Notes: generated by a model from the sequence alone, not told the origin. A stretch of DNA of 64,000 nucleotides from a virus (IMGVR_UViG_3300045988_129957); one strand, 5' to 3'. Shown: positions 3,001 through 47,467, counted from the stretch's first letter. Numbers and translations are program-made.

Positions 3001-6000
3001 ACGATGGCAACGAAAGGTATGAAATTGCGGGTCTTAGAGCCGATAAATTTATATCTTCTATAAAATCATTGGTTCCTATTCAAATAAGCTCTGAAACGAA
3101 CGCTAATGGTACTAAAAGGTATTCTCTTAACATAGGTGGAGAAACGGCTACTATAATTGAACTGCCTTATCATGCGAGATGGTCTATAGACAAAGAATCG
3201 GCTCGTGTTCTTAACCGTTACACAGATGTGTCTATTCAGGACGTGGGTAATTCATATTCTTTGGTTTATAAGCGTCTTGATTCAGACGAATTGGTTCCGT
3301 ACAGAACAGGTGTTGGATTCGGAGAGAATGAAGTAGATAAAATAGATCAGGAAGCATTATCTTCTTTGAAGAAAGGAGATAAGGTTAATCTTGAGATAGA
3401 TGCAAATGATACCTATAATCAGTCTCTTTTTGCCGAATACAATGATGCTGTTCAGTCCGGTGATAAAAAAAGAATAGAATCTGCTGAAAATAAGCTGGTA
3501 TCCAATATGGTTATCAAGGTCATGAGTGGAAACAGATTCGTTTCTGTTGTAAAAGCTGACACAGGAGGCATAGATGGTATAAGTAAGATAAGAAGAACGG
3601 CTTTTAACAAGTGGAAGAAGGACGCCGGCCGGTCGGCCACCATCAACGTCGGCACGCATGTTGTTGCCCAGACCCTTCCTGGAAGACCGGTGTTTAACAT
3701 GAGAGTAAACGGTCAAGGATATGGTCAGGTAGAAAATCTCCCTATTACCGAAAAAGGAGCTGAAAAAGTATCTGATGTCGGATATGTATTAAATGGCAAA
3801 GTCGTGCTTAAGAACGGATCTAAATACACAGGCTTCCCATTTGCTTATTCTATATTAAATGACAAGGGGAATAATTACAAAAATGTAAGAGTTCCGGTAG
3901 TTGTCATCAAAGGCAAAAACGGTCTTAATTATCTTTTCCCGGTTAGTCTACGTTCTGTGGAATCAGAGGAAGGAAAGAAATGGATTTCTTTTATAGATAT
4001 GCTGCCTGAATCAGGTGACTCTGAATTGTTACAGATGGGTCAAGATGATATACAAGATCTTAATGCGTATCTAACCAAGTTAGGCCTTGATCCGGCTTCG
4101 TATCAAGTATCGTATTTGAATCCTATTTCAGGGCTTAGAAAAGCTCGTGAGGCTATAGAAAAATTATCTACGGTTCCTGATGTTGTTAAATGGGTAGAAG
4201 ATGAAAGCAGGAATGTGAAAGACATTGTGATGTCTGAAGTAGAATCTGGAATAGATTTCGAAGGTGAGATGTTTGTCGCTCCTAAGATCAGGATTCAGTT
4301 TGGTAAATCATCTTCCAGACCTAAATCACTTATAGAAGATGATCTCCCTTTCTCCGATGAGGGTAAGACCGTTACTTCCAAGGAAGATGTGGATATTTAC
4401 GAAGATGAAATGCCAGAGGAAGACCCTGTCCGGGGGACTCGGCCGGCGCCACCAGCCCAGCCGGCTCCTGCGGCACAAGCTACGCAGTCCTTACATGGCA
4501 AGAAGCGCACCTCCAGAAAAAACTTCTCTCTTATGTTAAACGAAATAGAATCTCATATAGAAAAAGAAGGATTGCCGTCTTATGCTAATATTTTTGATTT
4601 TATAGCAAGGAAGATTGTAGGAGGTGATTTGAGGTTTCTTCGTGAGAGAGGTAATCCTAAAAGCCTTAAGGAAGAAATGGGATTAGAACCTAAAGGAACA
4701 GTAGGTGATAAAATATCCACTCCTTCTAAAAAGGGAGGTAAGACCTTAGAAGAATATGTTTCTTGGCTTCGTTCTCAAACAGATCAGGTGGTGGTTGATT
4801 ATGTTGGTCCAAGATCTGACGAACAAATTATATCAGAGTTGAAAAACTTTTTGAAATATATTAATTTTGTTCCAAGCAAGGCTTTGAATTATTCTCTTAG
4901 AGTCAATGGCATGGATGCCCTAAAAGAATATGGCACAAAAGAGGAAGTAGAAAAAATGGAATCTGACATCAATAGTTTGGTTTCTGAAGTTTTGCCTACG
5001 GTAGATAATCAAACTGTAGAAGATGTTTCTACTGCAATAGAATTAAATAACCTGCCTGCCATATGGAGACCTATGGAAAGCCTTGATGTGACAAACGAGG
5101 AAAAAATAGAGTTTTTGAATAACGTAGCAGATTTCCTTAGCGGCATTCCAGAGTATGATGCTGTTGTGGAGTCTATAGAGTCAGAATCAGATAATATTTT
5201 AAATGATGGAAAAGAAGGAAGTGCAGAAGGCGGTGCAGTACGCGCTGAGGAAGATGGCGATAAAAAGGGAGATGGAAAAAGAGAAGGACAACCCAGAGAT
5301 GATGGCAAAGCTGAGGGAGATGTCTATTTACCTGGATCTGAAGAAGGAAGAGTAGATAACTATAAGAAGAACGGAGATAAGTTCTCTGATATTGCCGAAG
5401 TTACTTTATGGTTACTTAGAAGGGCTGCCGGCATAACCTCTATCCCGGAAGGAGAAGAGGTTTATGTAGAGGGGGATGAAGTTAATAGCATTATGACCGA
5501 TATGGAATCAAGGTACGGGATAGACACCATCAACCACTCGCATGCGACTAAGGCTATAAGGGGTCTTAACGGCGTATCAGGTTATAAAGTAGAATACGGC
5601 TTAACCTTTTTAACATACGATCCTTTTATTAGAATATCCAATCCAAGGAAAGAATCTAAGGCCGAGAAAGACGAACCTCGTATATCCGAAGAACCGCTTA
5701 CTCACATATCAAGGGTAACAACCCCTTATTTCCTGTACGGCGGTGATGAAGCATATACATCTGTTCCGGCTAAGGTAGAACCTATACCGGAGAAGATAAT
5801 GGGTCGTAATGGCATTAAATTTGGTATGAGTGTAGTCGAGTTAACCAAATTAGGGTACAAAAAAGCTGGTGGAAACTGGATATATAAATTCTATATGAAC
5901 TTAGGTGTGTATGATTTGTATAATATCAGTACCGGTGAAGCGTTTAGGGTAAAACCGGATCTTGGAGTTAAGATAAGTTCCAGTGCATTCATCCGCTCTT

Positions 6001-41472: not shown

Positions 41473-41935
41473 CAGTTTTCTTTTCTCCCAATTTTTCTAC
41501 ACCTTTTTGCAGATCGTATTTAAATACTTCAATGATTTTCGTTTCTACAATAGACTCGCAATTCCAGTCGCCCAACGTACCTTGCATCCCCTTAGTCAAC
41601 ACAGCTTCGGCGTCTTTAGGATTGCCGGCCTGGACATACATATAGCATGGCGTTTTCTTTTCTTTACCTTTCCTTTCATCCAGTGTAATGTAATTCACCT
41701 TACACTTATACCAGTACTCAGCCTCTCCGTTGAAGAAGATTTCCGACACTTTAATAGGATTAATTTTTACAACCTCGAAAGAATTGTACAAATCCTTAAA
41801 GATCTCCAACGATCTTGATTCTGCCTCTGTGTAAGACAAGGCATCTACCAAATACTTTTCAGTTACTTTCTTTTTTTTGCCGTTCTCGATATTATCAATC
41901 TCGGCTTTTACTGTGATTTCAAACCAACGATTCAT
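41465..41935 (-). CDS. Hypothetical protein (~156 aa from ATG 41935) immediately downstream of IscB
   Basis: Track start is TTG overlapping IscB stop; first ATG gives MNRWFEITV...; no HUH motif so not TnpA. Confidence 0.45.
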   Translation of the reverse strand: MNRWFEITVKAEIDNIENGKKKKVTEKYLVDALSYTEAESRSLEIFKDLYNSFEVVKINPIKVSEIFFNGEAEYWYKCKVNYITLDERKGKEKKTPCYMYVQAGNPKDAEAVLTKGMQGTLGDWNCESIVETKIIEVFKYDLQKGVEKLGEKKTDE

Positions 41936-41958
41936 GTCTATATTTTTATTTAAATTGA

Positions 41959-43185
41959 TCAATCCATTTCCTTTTGTACCATAAAGCGTTTACACCTTGA
42001 TAATTTCAATTTCTTGTATGTAATATCTCTTTGGTTTTTACCATCAATATCTCGAATATTAAAACTACCGGTTTTACGCCTTGCAAATATAAAGTAATAA
42101 CTGTTTTCAAACATAACCCTATCAAACAATCGGAAACCAAAAACTTCAAAAGGAGATTGATTTGGTCTTTTTATCCCTCCTTTTGGAATCTTTTGTTTAT
42201 GGATCTGACGATTATGTCTTCTTACTAATCTTACTTTATAATAATAACCTAACCTTATAGCATCAAAGTTTTTAGAAATAACAAATGCATCGAAAACATG
42301 AGATTTTTCAATACCATGTTTAATCCTATTGTATTTTGTAACATAACCGAAAGTCATAGAAATGTTGTCGTATTTAGATTTTAGTTCTTCATACAATCTC
42401 CATTTCATTATTCCCATTACGGCTGCGTCGCGAAGCGACTTGCCTCTTCTGATTTTTAAATCTATATTACCTTTATGGTATTCTTTATGACAAGTTTCAC
42501 ATAAGGTAATAAGATTAGATGGGGAATCTCCACCTGTCTTTCGTGATTCAATATGATGAACATTCAATACTGGGTCTTTTGACTTTCCCTTACAATGCTG
42601 GCATTTATGTCCATCTCTTGCTAAAACATATTCCCTAACGTTCCAAAATCCAAGTTGATCACCCTCCTGATATTCTTTACCTGATATTTCAGGATTGTTA
42701 ATCTTCTGAGTATCAAATTGAGCTACTTCGATAACAATACGAGATATTGGTAATATAGAACATACATTGTCAATAACACGAATATGGGCGTCTACTTTGT
42801 ATTTCACCGAAGGTGCTACCCATCCCGGACGCTTACTTTTTATTCTATTATCAAAACGAGGTTTTCTATATCTCAATCTATTTCGTCTTGATCTTCGTAG
42901 CTCCCTTCTGGTAGACAAAAGATCTACGATATCATTTCTAAGAATAACTTCACTGCTGTAAAGTTCTTTGCTTTTCGTCGTTGCTGATAGACCAACGTGT
43001 TTAGTTCCAGCATCAACGCCTAACACAATTTCTTGTTTGTAATCAGATGTTACGTACGTTAATTTGATGGTAAACGGACATAGGTTTACAACGACTGCCT
43101 TTTTGTCTTTAAGCAATCGCCTAACCTTTCCATGCCTTGTTGTAGGCATCAAAGGTTTACCATTTATATCCTGTACGTACACCAT
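41959..43185 (-). CDS. iscB: IscB, IS200/IS605-family OMEGA RNA-guided nuclease (PLMP-RuvC-BH-HNH-RuvC)
   Basis: PLMP motif NGKPLMPT; RuvC-I IVLGVDAGTKHVGLSA; Arg-rich bridge helix RRELRRSRRNRLRYRKPRF; RuvC-II IVIEVAQFD; HNH HKCQHC...NVHHIE...NLITLCETCHKEYH; RuvC-III SHVFDAFV; 408 aa. Confidence 0.85.
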   Translation of the reverse strand: MVYVQDINGKPLMPTTRHGKVRRLLKDKKAVVVNLCPFTIKLTYVTSDYKQEIVLGVDAGTKHVGLSATTKSKELYSSEVILRNDIVDLLSTRRELRRSRRNRLRYRKPRFDNRIKSKRPGWVAPSVKYKVDAHIRVIDNVCSILPISRIVIEVAQFDTQKINNPEISGKEYQEGDQLGFWNVREYVLARDGHKCQHCKGKSKDPVLNVHHIESRKTGGDSPSNLITLCETCHKEYHKGNIDLKIRRGKSLRDAAVMGIMKWRLYEELKSKYDNISMTFGYVTKYNRIKHGIEKSHVFDAFVISKNFDAIRLGYYYKVRLVRRHNRQIHKQKIPKGGIKRPNQSPFEVFGFRLFDRVMFENSYYFIFARRKTGSFNIRDIDGKNQRDITYKKLKLSRCKRFMVQKEMD

Positions 43186-43560
43186 ATTTACAAACGTTTT
43201 TAATGTTTATTCAACATAAGTCAGAGTGAAACTCTGTTAGTACCCATCGCCAATGTTATTTAAGGTTTTTAGTAAGCAACACTATAGCTCGAATACAACC
43301 ATTGTTTAATCACTTACCTTAGAGCTACAGACTTGGGCAAACATCCGCAGGTAACTATCTATTCTTAAATAACGTAGTGTTTGTTTCAACACTTAGGCTA
43401 ATAATCGGAATAGCTTTTGGCTATTATGCATAATACAATACAAATTGGTTATGATTTGTATGAGTTATGTATTATTCTCGATTATCTAAGTGCGTCAGGG
43501 CTTCAATCATAGCTTCTTTTATCTCTTTTTCTTCCATTCTGTTTGTCTTTTTTGGACAAA
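43186..43560 (-). ncRNA. Candidate omegaRNA of IscB (position-based inference)
   Basis: 430-bp region upstream of iscB with no ORF >=60 aa in any frame and several hairpins (43221-43236, 43295-43337, 43408-43424); omegaRNAs lie 5' of iscB in the same orientation. Confidence 0.3.
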
Positions 43561-43614
43561 GATATGTCTTTTGATAATAAAAAAGATTCAAAATAATTTA
43601 ATTTAGCTTAATTA

Positions 43615-44280: not shown

Positions 44281-44330
44281 TTCTTTTTATTTATTAAATT
44301 AGGTGATTATATACAACTTTACACCATCTA

Positions 44331-44382
44331 TATAAAACAGAAGCCGGATAATGATTAACGTATATCCGGCTTCTGTTTTATA
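44331..44382. terminator. 20-bp perfect inverted repeat (tataaaacagaagccggata / tatccggcttctgttttata, 12-nt loop) with A/T flanks; bidirectional terminator or IS-end structure
   Basis: Read directly; between the IS1595 unit and the 221-aa gene. Confidence 0.5.
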
Positions 44383-44385
44383 TGG

Positions 44386-45560
44386 TTAAAATTCTTTTTC
44401 GTTACCACCTTTTTTAGAGGTGGTTTTATCAAAAAGAGGGTCGTTAGGATCTGTTTTGGGATTATAGCTAAATATACTTTTAGCTATTCTCTTCATATCC
44501 TTCTCTAATTTTCCACTTTTACTACTTCTGATCGTAGTAGTGGTTGATATTGTGAATTTCTTATTTTTTTTCATGCCGTAATTTTCTTTAGTTGTGAATA
44601 CCTTAATCGTCGTTTGGTATTCTGCAAAAATACATCGAATCTTTCAGATTCCGATAGATGTTTCGTGTTATATCTGAAAGATTCGCAATCTACATATCTT
44701 TGAAGATGTTTTCTCGACACCCAGAAATGGGTTCCAGAAATCATTTTCTTCAAATGGCTCCAATATCCTTCGATTGTGTTTGTTGATCTTCTGCCTATTA
44801 CATACGCTCCCTTTTTGTGATATACTTTTTGATGATCAAACTTTTCTTTGTCGATCCCGTTATACGCATACCATTCGTCAGAATATATGGTAGAATTAGG
44901 GTGAACGGTATTGTATATCAAAGGAAGTAAGGTTTTACCTTTTGTGTCTGTAACGACATAAGCGACAACAAATCCTTCTCGTTGGAGTGTCCCAAACACA
45001 GGGGTTTTATCTTTTAAAGATCTCCCCTGTGCATCTTTAACTTTATCCTTACTATGTCTATTCTTGTTTTTGCCACCAATATAAGTTTCATCCACTTCAA
45101 TCTCGCCTTTCAAACACGGCTCTTTTATTTCAATACTAAAACAATTGTGAATACGTTGAAGCATAAACCAAGCCGTTTTCTGTGTTACTCCCACGATTTT
45201 AGACAACTGTAAAGATGATACTCCTCTTTTCATTTCAACAACAAAATAACAAGCCAACATCCATTTTCGTAATGAAACCTTTGAATTTTCAAAAATCGTT
45301 CCTGTACGAACATTGAAGTATTTACCCGTGTTTTTACACTTGTACCTATTTCCTTTGCATTTATACACCTTAGATTCCGGATCGAAAGGAGAAACAACGT
45401 GATCTCCCCACCTTTCTTTTTCAAGAAAGGTTATACACGCTTGCTCATCAGGGAACAATTTTGAAAATTCAGGAAGTGATTTAAAATCGAACATACTTCT
45501 TATCTTTATATTGGATTATAAAAATACAAAAATATATTCATATAACCAACTAAAAATCAA
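44386..45560 (-). mobile_element. IS1595-family insertion (boundaries approximate; inverted repeats not found)
   Basis: Transposase plus 62-aa trailing ORF; located 1.3 kb from IscB element. Confidence 0.35.
44571..45494 (-). CDS. IS1595/ISXO2-family DDE transposase
   Basis: N-terminal Cys-pair zinc-ribbon, then ...LQLSKIVGVTQKTAWFMLQRIH and EVDETYIGGK DDE segment typical of ISXO2-like transposases; 307 aa. Confidence 0.7.
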   Translation of the reverse strand: MFDFKSLPEFSKLFPDEQACITFLEKERWGDHVVSPFDPESKVYKCKGNRYKCKNTGKYFNVRTGTIFENSKVSLRKWMLACYFVVEMKRGVSSLQLSKIVGVTQKTAWFMLQRIHNCFSIEIKEPCLKGEIEVDETYIGGKNKNRHSKDKVKDAQGRSLKDKTPVFGTLQREGFVVAYVVTDTKGKTLLPLIYNTVHPNSTIYSDEWYAYNGIDKEKFDHQKVYHKKGAYVIGRRSTNTIEGYWSHLKKMISGTHFWVSRKHLQRYVDCESFRYNTKHLSESERFDVFLQNTKRRLRYSQLKKITA

Positions 45561-45662
45561 TTAAATTCATCGAATATCTGATTTTGAATTATTTTTTTTT
45601 GTTGTTAAATTTCTAATTCTTTTCTATTTTTGAGGATTGTCTAACTTAATAATACTAATATC

Positions 45663-45971
45663 ATGGAAAATTTTTCAAGCGAAATTGAAGAAGAAATAAA
45701 AAATCTTCTTACCAAAATTTGTTCATCAACCTCAATCGAACAAGTTGATAAATTGCGTTTAAAAATAGAATCTTCTGTTAAAACATTCATAAAAGAATAC
45801 CCTTATAAATCAGAGGAAATAGAAATGCTTTATTTAAAAGAACATTGCCCATTAGACACTGTTGTTAAATTTAGAATAAATGAGATTTTAAACATCCCTA
45901 ATGCTTATCCTTCTCAAAACATTTCATTGGATATCGCTATGATGTTGCTTTCTTTGCGATTAGATCATTGA
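45663..45971 (+). CDS. Hypothetical protein (102 aa), isolated +-strand gene
   Basis: ORF divergent from transposase. Confidence 0.35.
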   Translation: MENFSSEIEEEIKNLLTKICSSTSIEQVDKLRLKIESSVKTFIKEYPYKSEEIEMLYLKEHCPLDTVVKFRINEILNIPNAYPSQNISLDIAMMLLSLRLDH

Positions 45972-46120
45972 TAGAATCAAGCAGTTTTCGGTCGTGAGGA
46001 GAATCGTAATTTTTAAGTTTTTCCTTACAAATTTCTCTCATTTTGATAAGACGATTCAATTCTTGTTGTCCATTTTCTTTTGATGTTTTCATAATTGTAA
46101 CTTTTAAAAGTGAATAATTA

Positions 46121-46168
46121 ATTGATTTATAAAAAGAAAGCGGTGATAAACTAAGTTACCACCGCTTT
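46121..46168 (-). terminator. Rho-independent terminator of TRL lipoprotein gene
   Basis: aaagcggtg...caccgcttt 9-bp stem, followed on minus strand by CTTTTTAT. Confidence 0.55.
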
Positions 46169-46189
46169 CATGTTTTGCATTAAAATAAG

Positions 46190-46498
46190 TTATTCTCCAT
46201 ACACTGTAACCGTGTATTTAGCAAACAGCCCTAATACACCTGTCGACTTTTCGTCTACATGGCTAATTTTTGTTATACCAGCTTCTTTTGCTGCTTTCTG
46301 TACACTTGCATTGCCTAAAGCAACCCACCCCAGAATACTAACGGCACTGGCTTTACCTTTCTTAGAACCTACCGGATTTTCTGTCACTGTTACAGGCGCT
46401 TTTGTGTTTGTATAAACAAAACCTGTTACTGGAGATTTTACCATAGCGCAGCTTGATAATAGTAATACTGCACTACAAAAAGCAATGATCTTTTTCAT
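46190..46498 (-). CDS. TRL-family lipoprotein (Bacteroidetes-type)
   Basis: Signal peptide + lipobox LLSSCA; VKSPVTGFVYTN...LGWVALGNASVQKAAKEAGITKI...TVTVYG matches TRL-like family (from memory, no search run); 102 aa. Confidence 0.65.
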   Translation of the reverse strand: MKKIIAFCSAVLLLSSCAMVKSPVTGFVYTNTKAPVTVTENPVGSKKGKASAVSILGWVALGNASVQKAAKEAGITKISHVDEKSTGVLGLFAKYTVTVYGE

Positions 46499-47000
46499 TG
46501 TGTGTTTGTATTGTCTCTCCTGTCCCCTCTGGAAAGATTAACAAAAAAAAGAAGCGTGGAGACTATTGGATACTACCGCATTGAGGTCTTGGACTACCCT
46601 TCGCACAATAGTAAACAATAGCCCCACGCCTTATGTCAGTATATAATATCCCCATCTTACATACAATACAGGAATGCATATAACAACATAGACGTAGGAG
46701 CACTTGTTCATCACCTTGTGCGAATGAAAGTGTCCAAGTTTCAATGCAAGGCAATATCTTAACGCTTCTACGTTACTTCTCTAATATGTGGGGACAAAGA
46801 TAGTAAATACGATAAATATTTAAAAACAAATTAAAAGGATTTAATTTGATGTAAAATAAATATGATTGTTTTAACAGGTTTGTATTTTTGTTGTAAAAAC
46901 GCTCTCAAATATTGGATACTAAAATAAAAACTGACTGAAAATCAGTCGGAAGTAGATCTTGAATCTACATTTTTAACTTTGTTAAATAGGAGAAATTCTT

Positions 47001-47132
47001 ATGAAAACAAAGTCTGGAAATAAACGGGTGTATGTGCATGAATACTCATATACATCGCCTAATGGTAATAAGGTTATAGTACCAAAACATTACCGTACAC
47101 CTCCTTGCCCACCATGCAAGAAGGCTGATTAA
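47001..47132 (+). CDS. Small protein (43 aa) with strong RBS and terminator
   Basis: taggagaaattcttATG; stop TAA 47130-47132; hairpin terminator follows. Confidence 0.35.
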   Translation: MKTKSGNKRVYVHEYSYTSPNGNKVIVPKHYRTPPCPPCKKAD

Positions 47133-47139
47133 TTTCCAA

Positions 47140-47168
47140 GGGGATAGGATTTCTATCCCCTTCTTTTA
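47140..47168 (+). terminator. Rho-independent terminator
   Basis: ggggatag-gattt-ctatcccc + ttctttt. Confidence 0.55.
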
Positions 47169-47275
47169 ATATCCTAATATTTAAAGAGCGTTTTTTTGTT
47201 TATTCAAATATACACAAAATAAATATTGAAGTGGTCAATGATTATTTTTTGGTAGTAGTGTAAAGTTGTATATAA

Positions 47276-47467
47276 TCACCTTAAATTAAACAATCTACCT
47301 CTTTGTTCAGGCTCCGTATATTCTACCCATATATCGGCTGCCACATTTCTAAGAAATTCCATAAAGTCTTGATGATCCCTGTATTCAGCAGAATCAACTT
47401 TTCTCACAAAACTTAGAATTTCCTTTAACATCTTATTGTTTTCTTCAAGAAGTTCTCTGTCGGTCAT
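47276..47467 (-). CDS. Hypothetical small protein (63 aa)
   Basis: ORF. Confidence 0.3.
   Translation of the reverse strand: MTDRELLEENNKMLKEILSFVRKVDSAEYRDHQDFMEFLRNVAADIWVEYTEPEQRGRLFNLR

Follow-up and report, generated by a model that had tools for sequence, protein, structure and literature searches.

What does an RNA-guided nuclease do in the genome of a phage, and which DNA does its guide address? The question is raised by a 64,000-nucleotide (nt) stretch of the virus IMGVR_UViG_3300045988_129957 (hereafter the window, meaning the stretch at its full length), in which a sequence-only reading had recognized a minus-strand gene for the OMEGA nuclease IscB behind an apparently noncoding leader, and had asked whether it is a purely selfish insertion sequence (IS) or one co-opted for homing, superinfection competition or host-genome targeting. 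We consider it probable that positions 43485 to 41936, read on the minus strand, are a non-autonomous (TnpA-less) IS of the IS200/IS605 type, ISC/IscB class, situated in the replication module of a human-gut phage of about 150 kb and spreading by the homing model set out below. The purely selfish option gains support because the guide is adjacent phage flank, while targeting of the host genome finds none. Four features carry this reading:

41936 to 43485, minus strand: the whole mobile element, 1550 bp, made up of the omegaRNA scaffold and iscB; 5' end ATAATCGAG..., 3' end ...AAAATATAGAC
41959 to 43185, minus strand: the iscB gene, 408 amino acids (aa), with catalytic D58, E153 and H296/D299 (RuvC) and H210/H211 (HNH)
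43186 to 43485, minus strand: the predicted omegaRNA scaffold (HEARO), delimited by the Rfam match, the minimum free energy (MFE) fold, covariation and the start of the conserved block
41933 to 41935, minus strand: ATG at the 3' end of the element, the putative transposon-adjacent motif (TAM), which doubles as the start codon of a DUF4494 gene; it occurs once in vacant sites

The 408-aa open reading frame (ORF) is, at the level of sequence, unambiguously a true IscB. Each motif that the sequence-only reading had listed for it is present, namely PLMP (residues 11–14), RuvC-I as GVDAG (56–60, with D58), an Arg-rich bridge helix (93–111), RuvC-II as IVIEVAQFD (150–158, with E153), the HNH parts CQHC (195–198), NVHHIE (208–213) and NLITLCETCHKEYH (224–237), and RuvC-III as SHVFDAFV (295–302, with H296 and D299). 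The Pfam profile RRXRR (PF14239) matches at 1.1e-61, residues 2–175 covering profile positions 1–174 of 174, and HNH (PF01844) at 3.7e-09 over residues 195–238; the NCBIfam equivalog NF040563, 'RNA-guided endonuclease IscB', gives 366.6 bits against a curated whole-protein cut-off of 175 bits. A sequence search of the Protein Data Bank returns OgeuIscB (7utn/7xht) at E 1e-44 and other solved IscBs down to 9e-47. Alignment to OgeuIscB puts D58, E153, H210/H211 and H296/D299 on catalytic positions and, with the Pfam matches, reveals a split RuvC with the HNH domain inserted between RuvC-II and RuvC-III, so that the profile and structure matches return an IscB and not a plain HNH endonuclease.

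The leader proposed earlier, 430 bp long (43186–43614) and holding no ORF of at least 60 aa, does encode an omegaRNA. On the iscB strand, ahead of the gene, the Rfam covariance model HEARO (RF02033, the IscB omegaRNA) matches over its full length at 43236–43452 (minus strand) with 101.6 bits (E 6e-21; gathering score 83 bits), the sole above-threshold Rfam match in the window. The omegaRNA itself, however, takes up only about 300 bases (43186–43485), and the remaining 43486–43614 are phage flank with a promoter-like box and a 21-codon stump of a displaced 86-aa ORF. In the omegaRNA body 23 of 39 RNAalifold pairs have compensatory changes on both sides, and the MFE fold has a z-score of -4.1. 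For helix P1 and the 5' domain, compared over 36 sequences, 86.5% of cells are paired against 30–41% with the partner slid, none of 500 shuffles reaches the observed score, and five P1 pairs are altered on both sides. P1 is formed by ATAATCG (43485–43479) and CGATTAT (43407–43401), directly before an invariant TAGCC, a placement that it shares with bacterial HEAROs; one unusually long, covarying hairpin and one short hairpin lie inside it, and the body and terminal hairpin come after.

The Rfam 5' boundary at 43452 was rejected, as the conserved block and helix P1 begin at 43485, 33 nt further upstream; the first helix of the Rfam alignment, which starts at 43452, holds several non-canonical pairs. 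The enlarged first hairpin led Infernal to misplace P1, which is set at 43485–43479 on the strength of conservation across contexts, the MFE fold and the pair count on the 36 sequences. Since the scaffold starts at 43485, the guide would be the 16 nt 5' of it (43501–43486), and the sequence that the earlier reading had hoped to find is thus located in the adjacent phage flank:

43486 to 43501, minus strand: predicted 16-nt guide GCCCTGACGCACTTAG, directly 5' of P1; part of the phage flank, left over from the small ORF that was displaced
43472 to 43537, minus strand: stump of the displaced 86-aa phage ORF, MEEKEIKEAMIEALTHL followed by DNRE and a stop codon that lies inside the element
43557 to 43564, minus strand: TATCTTTG promoter-like box, conserved in all relatives

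With up to three mismatches allowed, the guide matches only itself in the window. Against 596 Gb of genome sequence a 16-mer would be expected to hit about 280 times by chance, too often to be informative about host targets. The TATCTTTG box fits what we take to be the Bacteroidetes -7 promoter consensus, TAnnTTTG, and likely represents a promoter for omegaRNA and iscB; in some relatives it lies 18–19 nt from the scaffold, so that the primary transcript would start roughly at the guide.

The ends of the element were fixed by comparing 170 related loci. Across relatives it starts with ATAATCG[A/C]GAATAAT and ends with ...AAAATATAGAC, and wherever the flanks are unrelated the similarity to the window always spans 43485 to about 41936. 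IMG/VR holds 308 relatives of the IscB protein, and their elements keep the same ends across at least 14 flank contexts (the best 80 of the 308 share 79–99% aa identity and sit on phage contigs of up to 253 kb), and some contigs carry two copies. Vacant alleles are available for three contexts, and the joined flanks of the occupied copies match them exactly: in L052 the order is ...GTGTTGAGG, element, ATGTTCGG, and the joined flanks agree with vacant L045 (...GTGTTGAGGATGTTCGG) at 300 of 300 positions. Insertion is therefore precise and makes no target duplication. The sharp-ended presence/absence polymorphism among related phages is what the sequence-only reading had expected of IS boundaries, and not the pattern of a conserved core gene.

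The triplet after the element is ATG in 14 of 14 contexts. We infer from the flanks and the geometry that it is the TAM, because TnpA and IscB share one adjacent motif (Meers et al. 2023, PMC10055086), for GstIscB TTCAT, or ATGAA when followed along the iscB strand, 3' of the element, where the window flank has ATGAAT. The idea that ATG belongs to the element was rejected, as vacant sites hold a single ATG past the insertion point. The ATG is a gene start codon in 11 of the 14 contexts (ORFs of 82–919 aa, that of L030 read by eye), and the overlap of motif and start codon, together with selection in a compact genome, explains why surviving insertions lie just before genes. In one context the site precedes a tRNA gene; here the triplet is ATG in 5/5 occupied loci and GTG, at the same position, in 12/12 vacant loci (grouped as L045/L046/L050/L051/L054 versus L052, L053, L055, L058–L062, L065, L068, L069 and L072), a difference owed either to lineage structure or to protection against insertion or cutting. 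In the window, the ORF that starts 23 nt past the iscB stop, earlier noted to lack a HUH motif, is a DUF4494 phage gene (1.2e-40) also found in element-free phages. Only 23 nt separate the iscB stop from the end of the element; these last 23 nt are A/T-rich, resemble the native sequence before the DUF4494 start and may functionally replace it.

The genes flanking the element are 91–95% identical to those of phage csAssE-Sib (OR575929, 151 kb, human gut), and the genes around the site form a module for replication and recombination that encodes two helicases, one of them DnaB-like, along with two exonucleases and a methyltransferase. There is no IscB in csAssE-Sib, where 177 bp, most of an 86-aa ORF, stand in place of window positions 41976–43484. 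Sibling loci were fetched through a neighbouring 221-aa gene, and the limits of the site could be set in 78: in 62 of these the site is vacant and the 86-aa ORF intact, in 14 the element is complete, one locus has a derivative of it with an internal deletion, and one has a solo omegaRNA from a related subfamily. A scan of a genome collection for IscB relatives yielded only 10, the closest in a Vibrio olivae contig (79%) and a Phocaeicola metagenome-assembled genome (70%); the family looks phage-adapted because its bacterial relatives are few and distant. The Vibrio olivae sequence (L162, a 20-kb contig of CECT 8064) couples its 79% IscB with a matching omegaRNA in a marine Vibrio assembly, the other close relatives all being phage contigs from the human gut; a phage origin of the contig, contamination or true transfer could each explain it.

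In the mechanism that we propose, an upstream phage promoter would transcribe through the flank into the element, giving an omegaRNA whose 5' terminal 16 nt or so, the guide, have the sequence of the flank. IscB with this RNA would cut guide-matched DNA that bears the ATG motif after the match, a combination exclusive to the vacant site. On co-infection with an element-free sibling, or after excision, the break would be repaired from the occupied copy and the element would be over-inherited; phage exonucleases and helicases encoded near the element offer repair capacity. Jumps to new ATG sites would require a Y1 TnpA supplied in trans.

Homing of this kind calls for a vacant allele in which the guide match is followed by the TAM. 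For the two commonest junction classes in the window context the vacant allele does continue with ATG. For the window copy itself most vacant sibling alleles carry the guide GCCCTGACGCACTTAG at 16/16 positions and then AGGGGTG rather than ATG, so the copy would have no licensed target among known relatives if ATG is required; it is probably an intact nuclease–RNA pair that is not homing-competent at present. In this context the 3' junction is the same in every occupied allele, and the guide-side junction is found at no fewer than eight positions, among them the following:

J6 (...ACGATAGTAA): 15 contigs; the vacant allele continues ATGAAG
J1 (...AAACAGA): 4 contigs; the vacant allele continues ATGGAAG, the start codon of the small ORF
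J1-like, rearranged: 2 contigs
J5: 2 contigs; the vacant allele does not continue with ATG
J4: 1 contig; not ATG
J3: 1 contig; not ATG
J2 (the window and the ENA contig L172): rare; the vacant allele continues AGG

The exact junction of the window has 0 matches in IMG/VR and was recovered in a human-gut contig of ENA (L172) by an exact-protein look-up. Compared with the commonest occupied allele, the window copy has lost 33 nt of flank beside the scaffold. The elements of L173 (J6) and of L174/L175 (J1) are identical, with 0/1549 differences, and the window/L172 allele differs from them at 2/1549 positions, whereas the guides differ; L173 and L174 are 99.5–99.9% identical throughout except for a deletion of about 85 nt that abuts the scaffold. 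Flank was also lost on the scaffold side in two further contexts, 60 nt in L049 and 5 nt in L072. On these alignments three different guides on near-identical elements arise by deletions abutting the scaffold, for which three causes are possible: adjacent deletion of the TnpA type, joining the right end (RE) to DNA past the next CAT/ATG motif; deletions at random positions, which would restore a target where they end beside an ATG and let such copies spread by homing; and leaky self-cutting at a near-cognate ATA that opens the scaffold. Two small irregularities occur at the same junction. The first 13 nt of the element are tandemly duplicated in L009 at about 3680–3720 (TAATCGAGGATAT TAATCGAGGATAAT; the same contig as L110), and L015 has a similar small rearrangement.

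These junctions allow a more speculative extension of the homing model, to which we give only tentative credence. The family would be an RNA-guided gene drive between co-infecting gut phages that renews its guide by losing flank beside the omegaRNA: a deletion that places the scaffold against the next ATG-preceded sequence would make a new licensed guide, vacant phages would escape through point changes in target or ATG, and the window copy would be a failed renewal. The renewal deletions could come about by adjacent deletion of the TnpA type, or by chance followed by homing. Among the vacant alleles none matches the commonest (J6) guide exactly, 35 having one change and 25 another, which is suggestive of escape; we do not count it as proof, given the polymorphism along the whole region and the phylogenetic structure among the loci.

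The same facts can be read more soberly, and we regard it as possible, if doubtful, that the window copy is simply a dead end, an intact nuclease and RNA whose guide has been left by a guide-side deletion without an ATG-flanked target and which, with no transposase, merely hitch-hikes in its phage lineage and will decay. The AGG that follows the guide match in vacant alleles speaks for this, as does the high sensitivity of IscB cleavage to changes in the TAM that a figure legend reports (PMC10055086), and so do the rarity of the junction class (the window and one ENA contig group, none in IMG/VR) and the failure to find TnpA. Decay, on the other hand, is not visible in a copy that lies 2/1549 nt from copies with common junctions; IscB could use omegaRNAs in trans, and solo omegaRNA mini-elements do occur in relatives; and the stringency for ATG is itself deduced, for the window IscB, from the flanks.

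Several observations weigh against the homing IS. With IS608 and IS200 TnpA as tblastn queries, both validated, no TnpA was found in the window and 171 loci (about 1.5 Mb), and the left end (LE, the iscB-distal end) folds no better than shuffles in three copies (z about 0.3). The window element replaces 177 bp relative to csAssE-Sib and is no simple insertion, and no clean-insertion ancestor for this context occurs in IMG/VR, with 0 cases of the element directly after ...ATTAATACA and 0 of the element followed by ATGAAGAGG. Vacant alleles that have ATG and a single distal mismatch to the common guide are frequent, so that a drive, if operating, is not sweeping. Finally, the homing, cleavage and transcript steps are inferred from sequence.

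Among iscB copies non-autonomy is usual, with tnpA nearby in only about 1.5% of the genes (PMC10055086). That neither TnpA nor a CRISPR array accompanies the gene had already been remarked in the sequence-only reading, and both absences hold: a Pfam scan of the 52 window ORFs of 95–300 aa gave no Y1/HUH TnpA, in line with the two tblastn queries, and no CRISPR-like repeat array was found in the window. As for the hallmarks of IS200/IS605, the element contains no Y1 TnpA; it does insert precisely, without duplication, next to a fixed motif at the LE in the three contexts with occupied and vacant alleles, and its RE, though not its LE, is strongly structured (z -4.5).

Could the element then have moved solely by homologous recombination between phages, as a cassette that never transposed? 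The want of a transposase and of an LE hairpin would suit this explanation, and so would the replacement of DNA in the window context where a clean insertion might be looked for. We nevertheless judge it very unlikely, as the element is found in 14 unrelated contexts with identical ends, exact vacant sites and no shared flank homology, and the invariant flanking ATG is the expected trace of a motif-dependent transposase.

It is similarly improbable that IscB is a domesticated weapon of the phage against the host chromosome or unrelated competitor phages, although parts of the evidence look functional. Against 14 relatives the ratio of nonsynonymous to synonymous substitution rates (dN/dS) of the window iscB is 0.05–0.11, with dS up to 1.8, and the sampled iscB ORFs are full length; the family is, by this measure, under purifying selection, and strongly so. 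The gene is surrounded by an operon-like run of phage replication genes, and the family is abundant in phages (IMG/VR; phrog_119). A weapon would fit poorly, however, with a guide that is mere adjacent flank, differs at every insertion site and has no second match in the window, with an element that most near-identical phages do without, and with transposon-like ends at 14 or more sites.

We give practically no credence to an ordinary free-standing HNH homing endonuclease that recognizes DNA by protein contacts behind a leader or terminator structure, for although the PHROGs label of the family is just 'HNH endonuclease' (phrog_119, 2.7e-68) and public records name the exact protein 'hypothetical protein', as phage annotation pipelines generally name such genes, that identity is ruled out by the complete RRXRR/RuvC architecture and the score on the IscB equivalog, the alignment to solved IscB–omegaRNA complexes and the above-threshold HEARO match with its compensatory changes.

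The closest described counterpart is the ISGst IscB element of G. stearothermophilus (ISC2-type, PMC10055086), which has the same order of guide, omegaRNA at the RE and iscB, the GstIscB omegaRNA being likewise bounded by the RE. Both elements lack tnpA in cis, make no target duplication and sit next to a short motif, and the catalytic numbering runs nearly in parallel (D58 and H209/H210 in GstIscB, D58 and H210/H211 in the window IscB). They differ in setting, a bacterial chromosome there and a lytic-type gut phage here. In the window family, unlike ISGst IscB, the motif is conserved as ATG only, the iscB stop is 23 nt from the end of the element and an LE hairpin is undetectable; moreover, the first hairpin of the window omegaRNA is much longer than in the Rfam consensus. 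The match to OgeuIscB extends over PLMP, RuvC, bridge helix and HNH, and a HEARO-type omegaRNA is common to both systems; at 408 aa against 496 aa, the window IscB is the shorter protein in its bridge-helix region and C-terminal domain. The published TAM of OgeuIscB is reportedly NWRRNA, different from the ATG proposed here.

Phage-borne IscB/HEARO systems are not new as such. More than 16% of HEARO/IscB-encoding fragments have been described as viral or prophage-derived (Goltsman et al. 2022, PMC9755519), and the window element is one such case; the passages of that paper drawn on here contain no analysis of insertion sites, vacant alleles or the origin of guides in phages. Homing into co-infecting phages is likewise listed as a conceptual category in a 2026 review (PMC13565253), where the T-even SegF, SegB and Mob endonucleases have the outcome predicted here, in that the element-free allele of a co-infecting relative is cut and repaired by copying. 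Unlike these enzymes with their protein recognition, the window IscB would use an RNA guide and a 3-nt motif, and self and non-self would be told apart by the presence or absence of the element.

Taken alone the element adds little, since IscB, omegaRNA, TnpA-less ISC elements and their occurrence on viral contigs have all been published. Its value is that of a natural experiment, in which hundreds of near-identical gut-phage genomes occur with or without the element at many sites, and much can be read from them without bench work: a 3-nt motif that is a start codon, non-disruptive insertion before genes in a packed genome, vacant alleles with a mutated motif, and a guide that is replaced faster than a single point mutation accrues. 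If the homing reading is true, these genomes would be evidence from nature that the homing model of OMEGA nucleases holds between viruses, and a lead on how guides were turned over before CRISPR-style arrays evolved.

Reduced forms of the element occur in several relatives. In L125 (5820–6125) an internal-deletion derivative, resembling a miniature inverted-repeat transposable element, joins the first 100 nt or so of the omegaRNA to about the last 190 nt of iscB and keeps both ends. Solo HEARO/omegaRNA copies without iscB, all above the Rfam threshold, lie in L033 (7451–7695), L041 (7446–7690), L063 (1703–1943) and L106 (5801–6046). They are mini-elements of a related subfamily, with ends ATAACCCC... 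and ...GGGAT directly before ATG, and one sits 5' of an ATG inside the small ORF that the window element displaced; an IscB encoded at another locus could draw further guides in trans from such copies. At the protein level, the 90%-identity cluster that holds the window IscB (3063 members) includes entries of 318–319 aa for a DHH-family oligoribonuclease/phosphodiesterase. A DHH-family gene is the downstream neighbour of the element in another insertion context (L023), and the entries are probably an artefact of clustering or of gene calling across the junction.

A second, unrelated transposon (44301–47281) lies 686 bp from the IscB element and is also missing from csAssE-Sib, which has the intact target. 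It is bounded by perfect terminal inverted repeats of 23/24 bp (AGGTGATTATATACAACTTTACAC) and flanked by an 8-bp target duplication (TTAAATTA). Just inside its end, at 44330–44383, a perfect 21-nt inverted repeat with a 12-nt loop resembles a terminator, its Rfam matches being weak and sub-threshold. The transposon encodes a DDE transposase of the IS1595 family (44571–45494; NCBIfam 193 bits against a cut-off of 75), and its passenger ORFs include a TRL-like lipoprotein (46190–46498).

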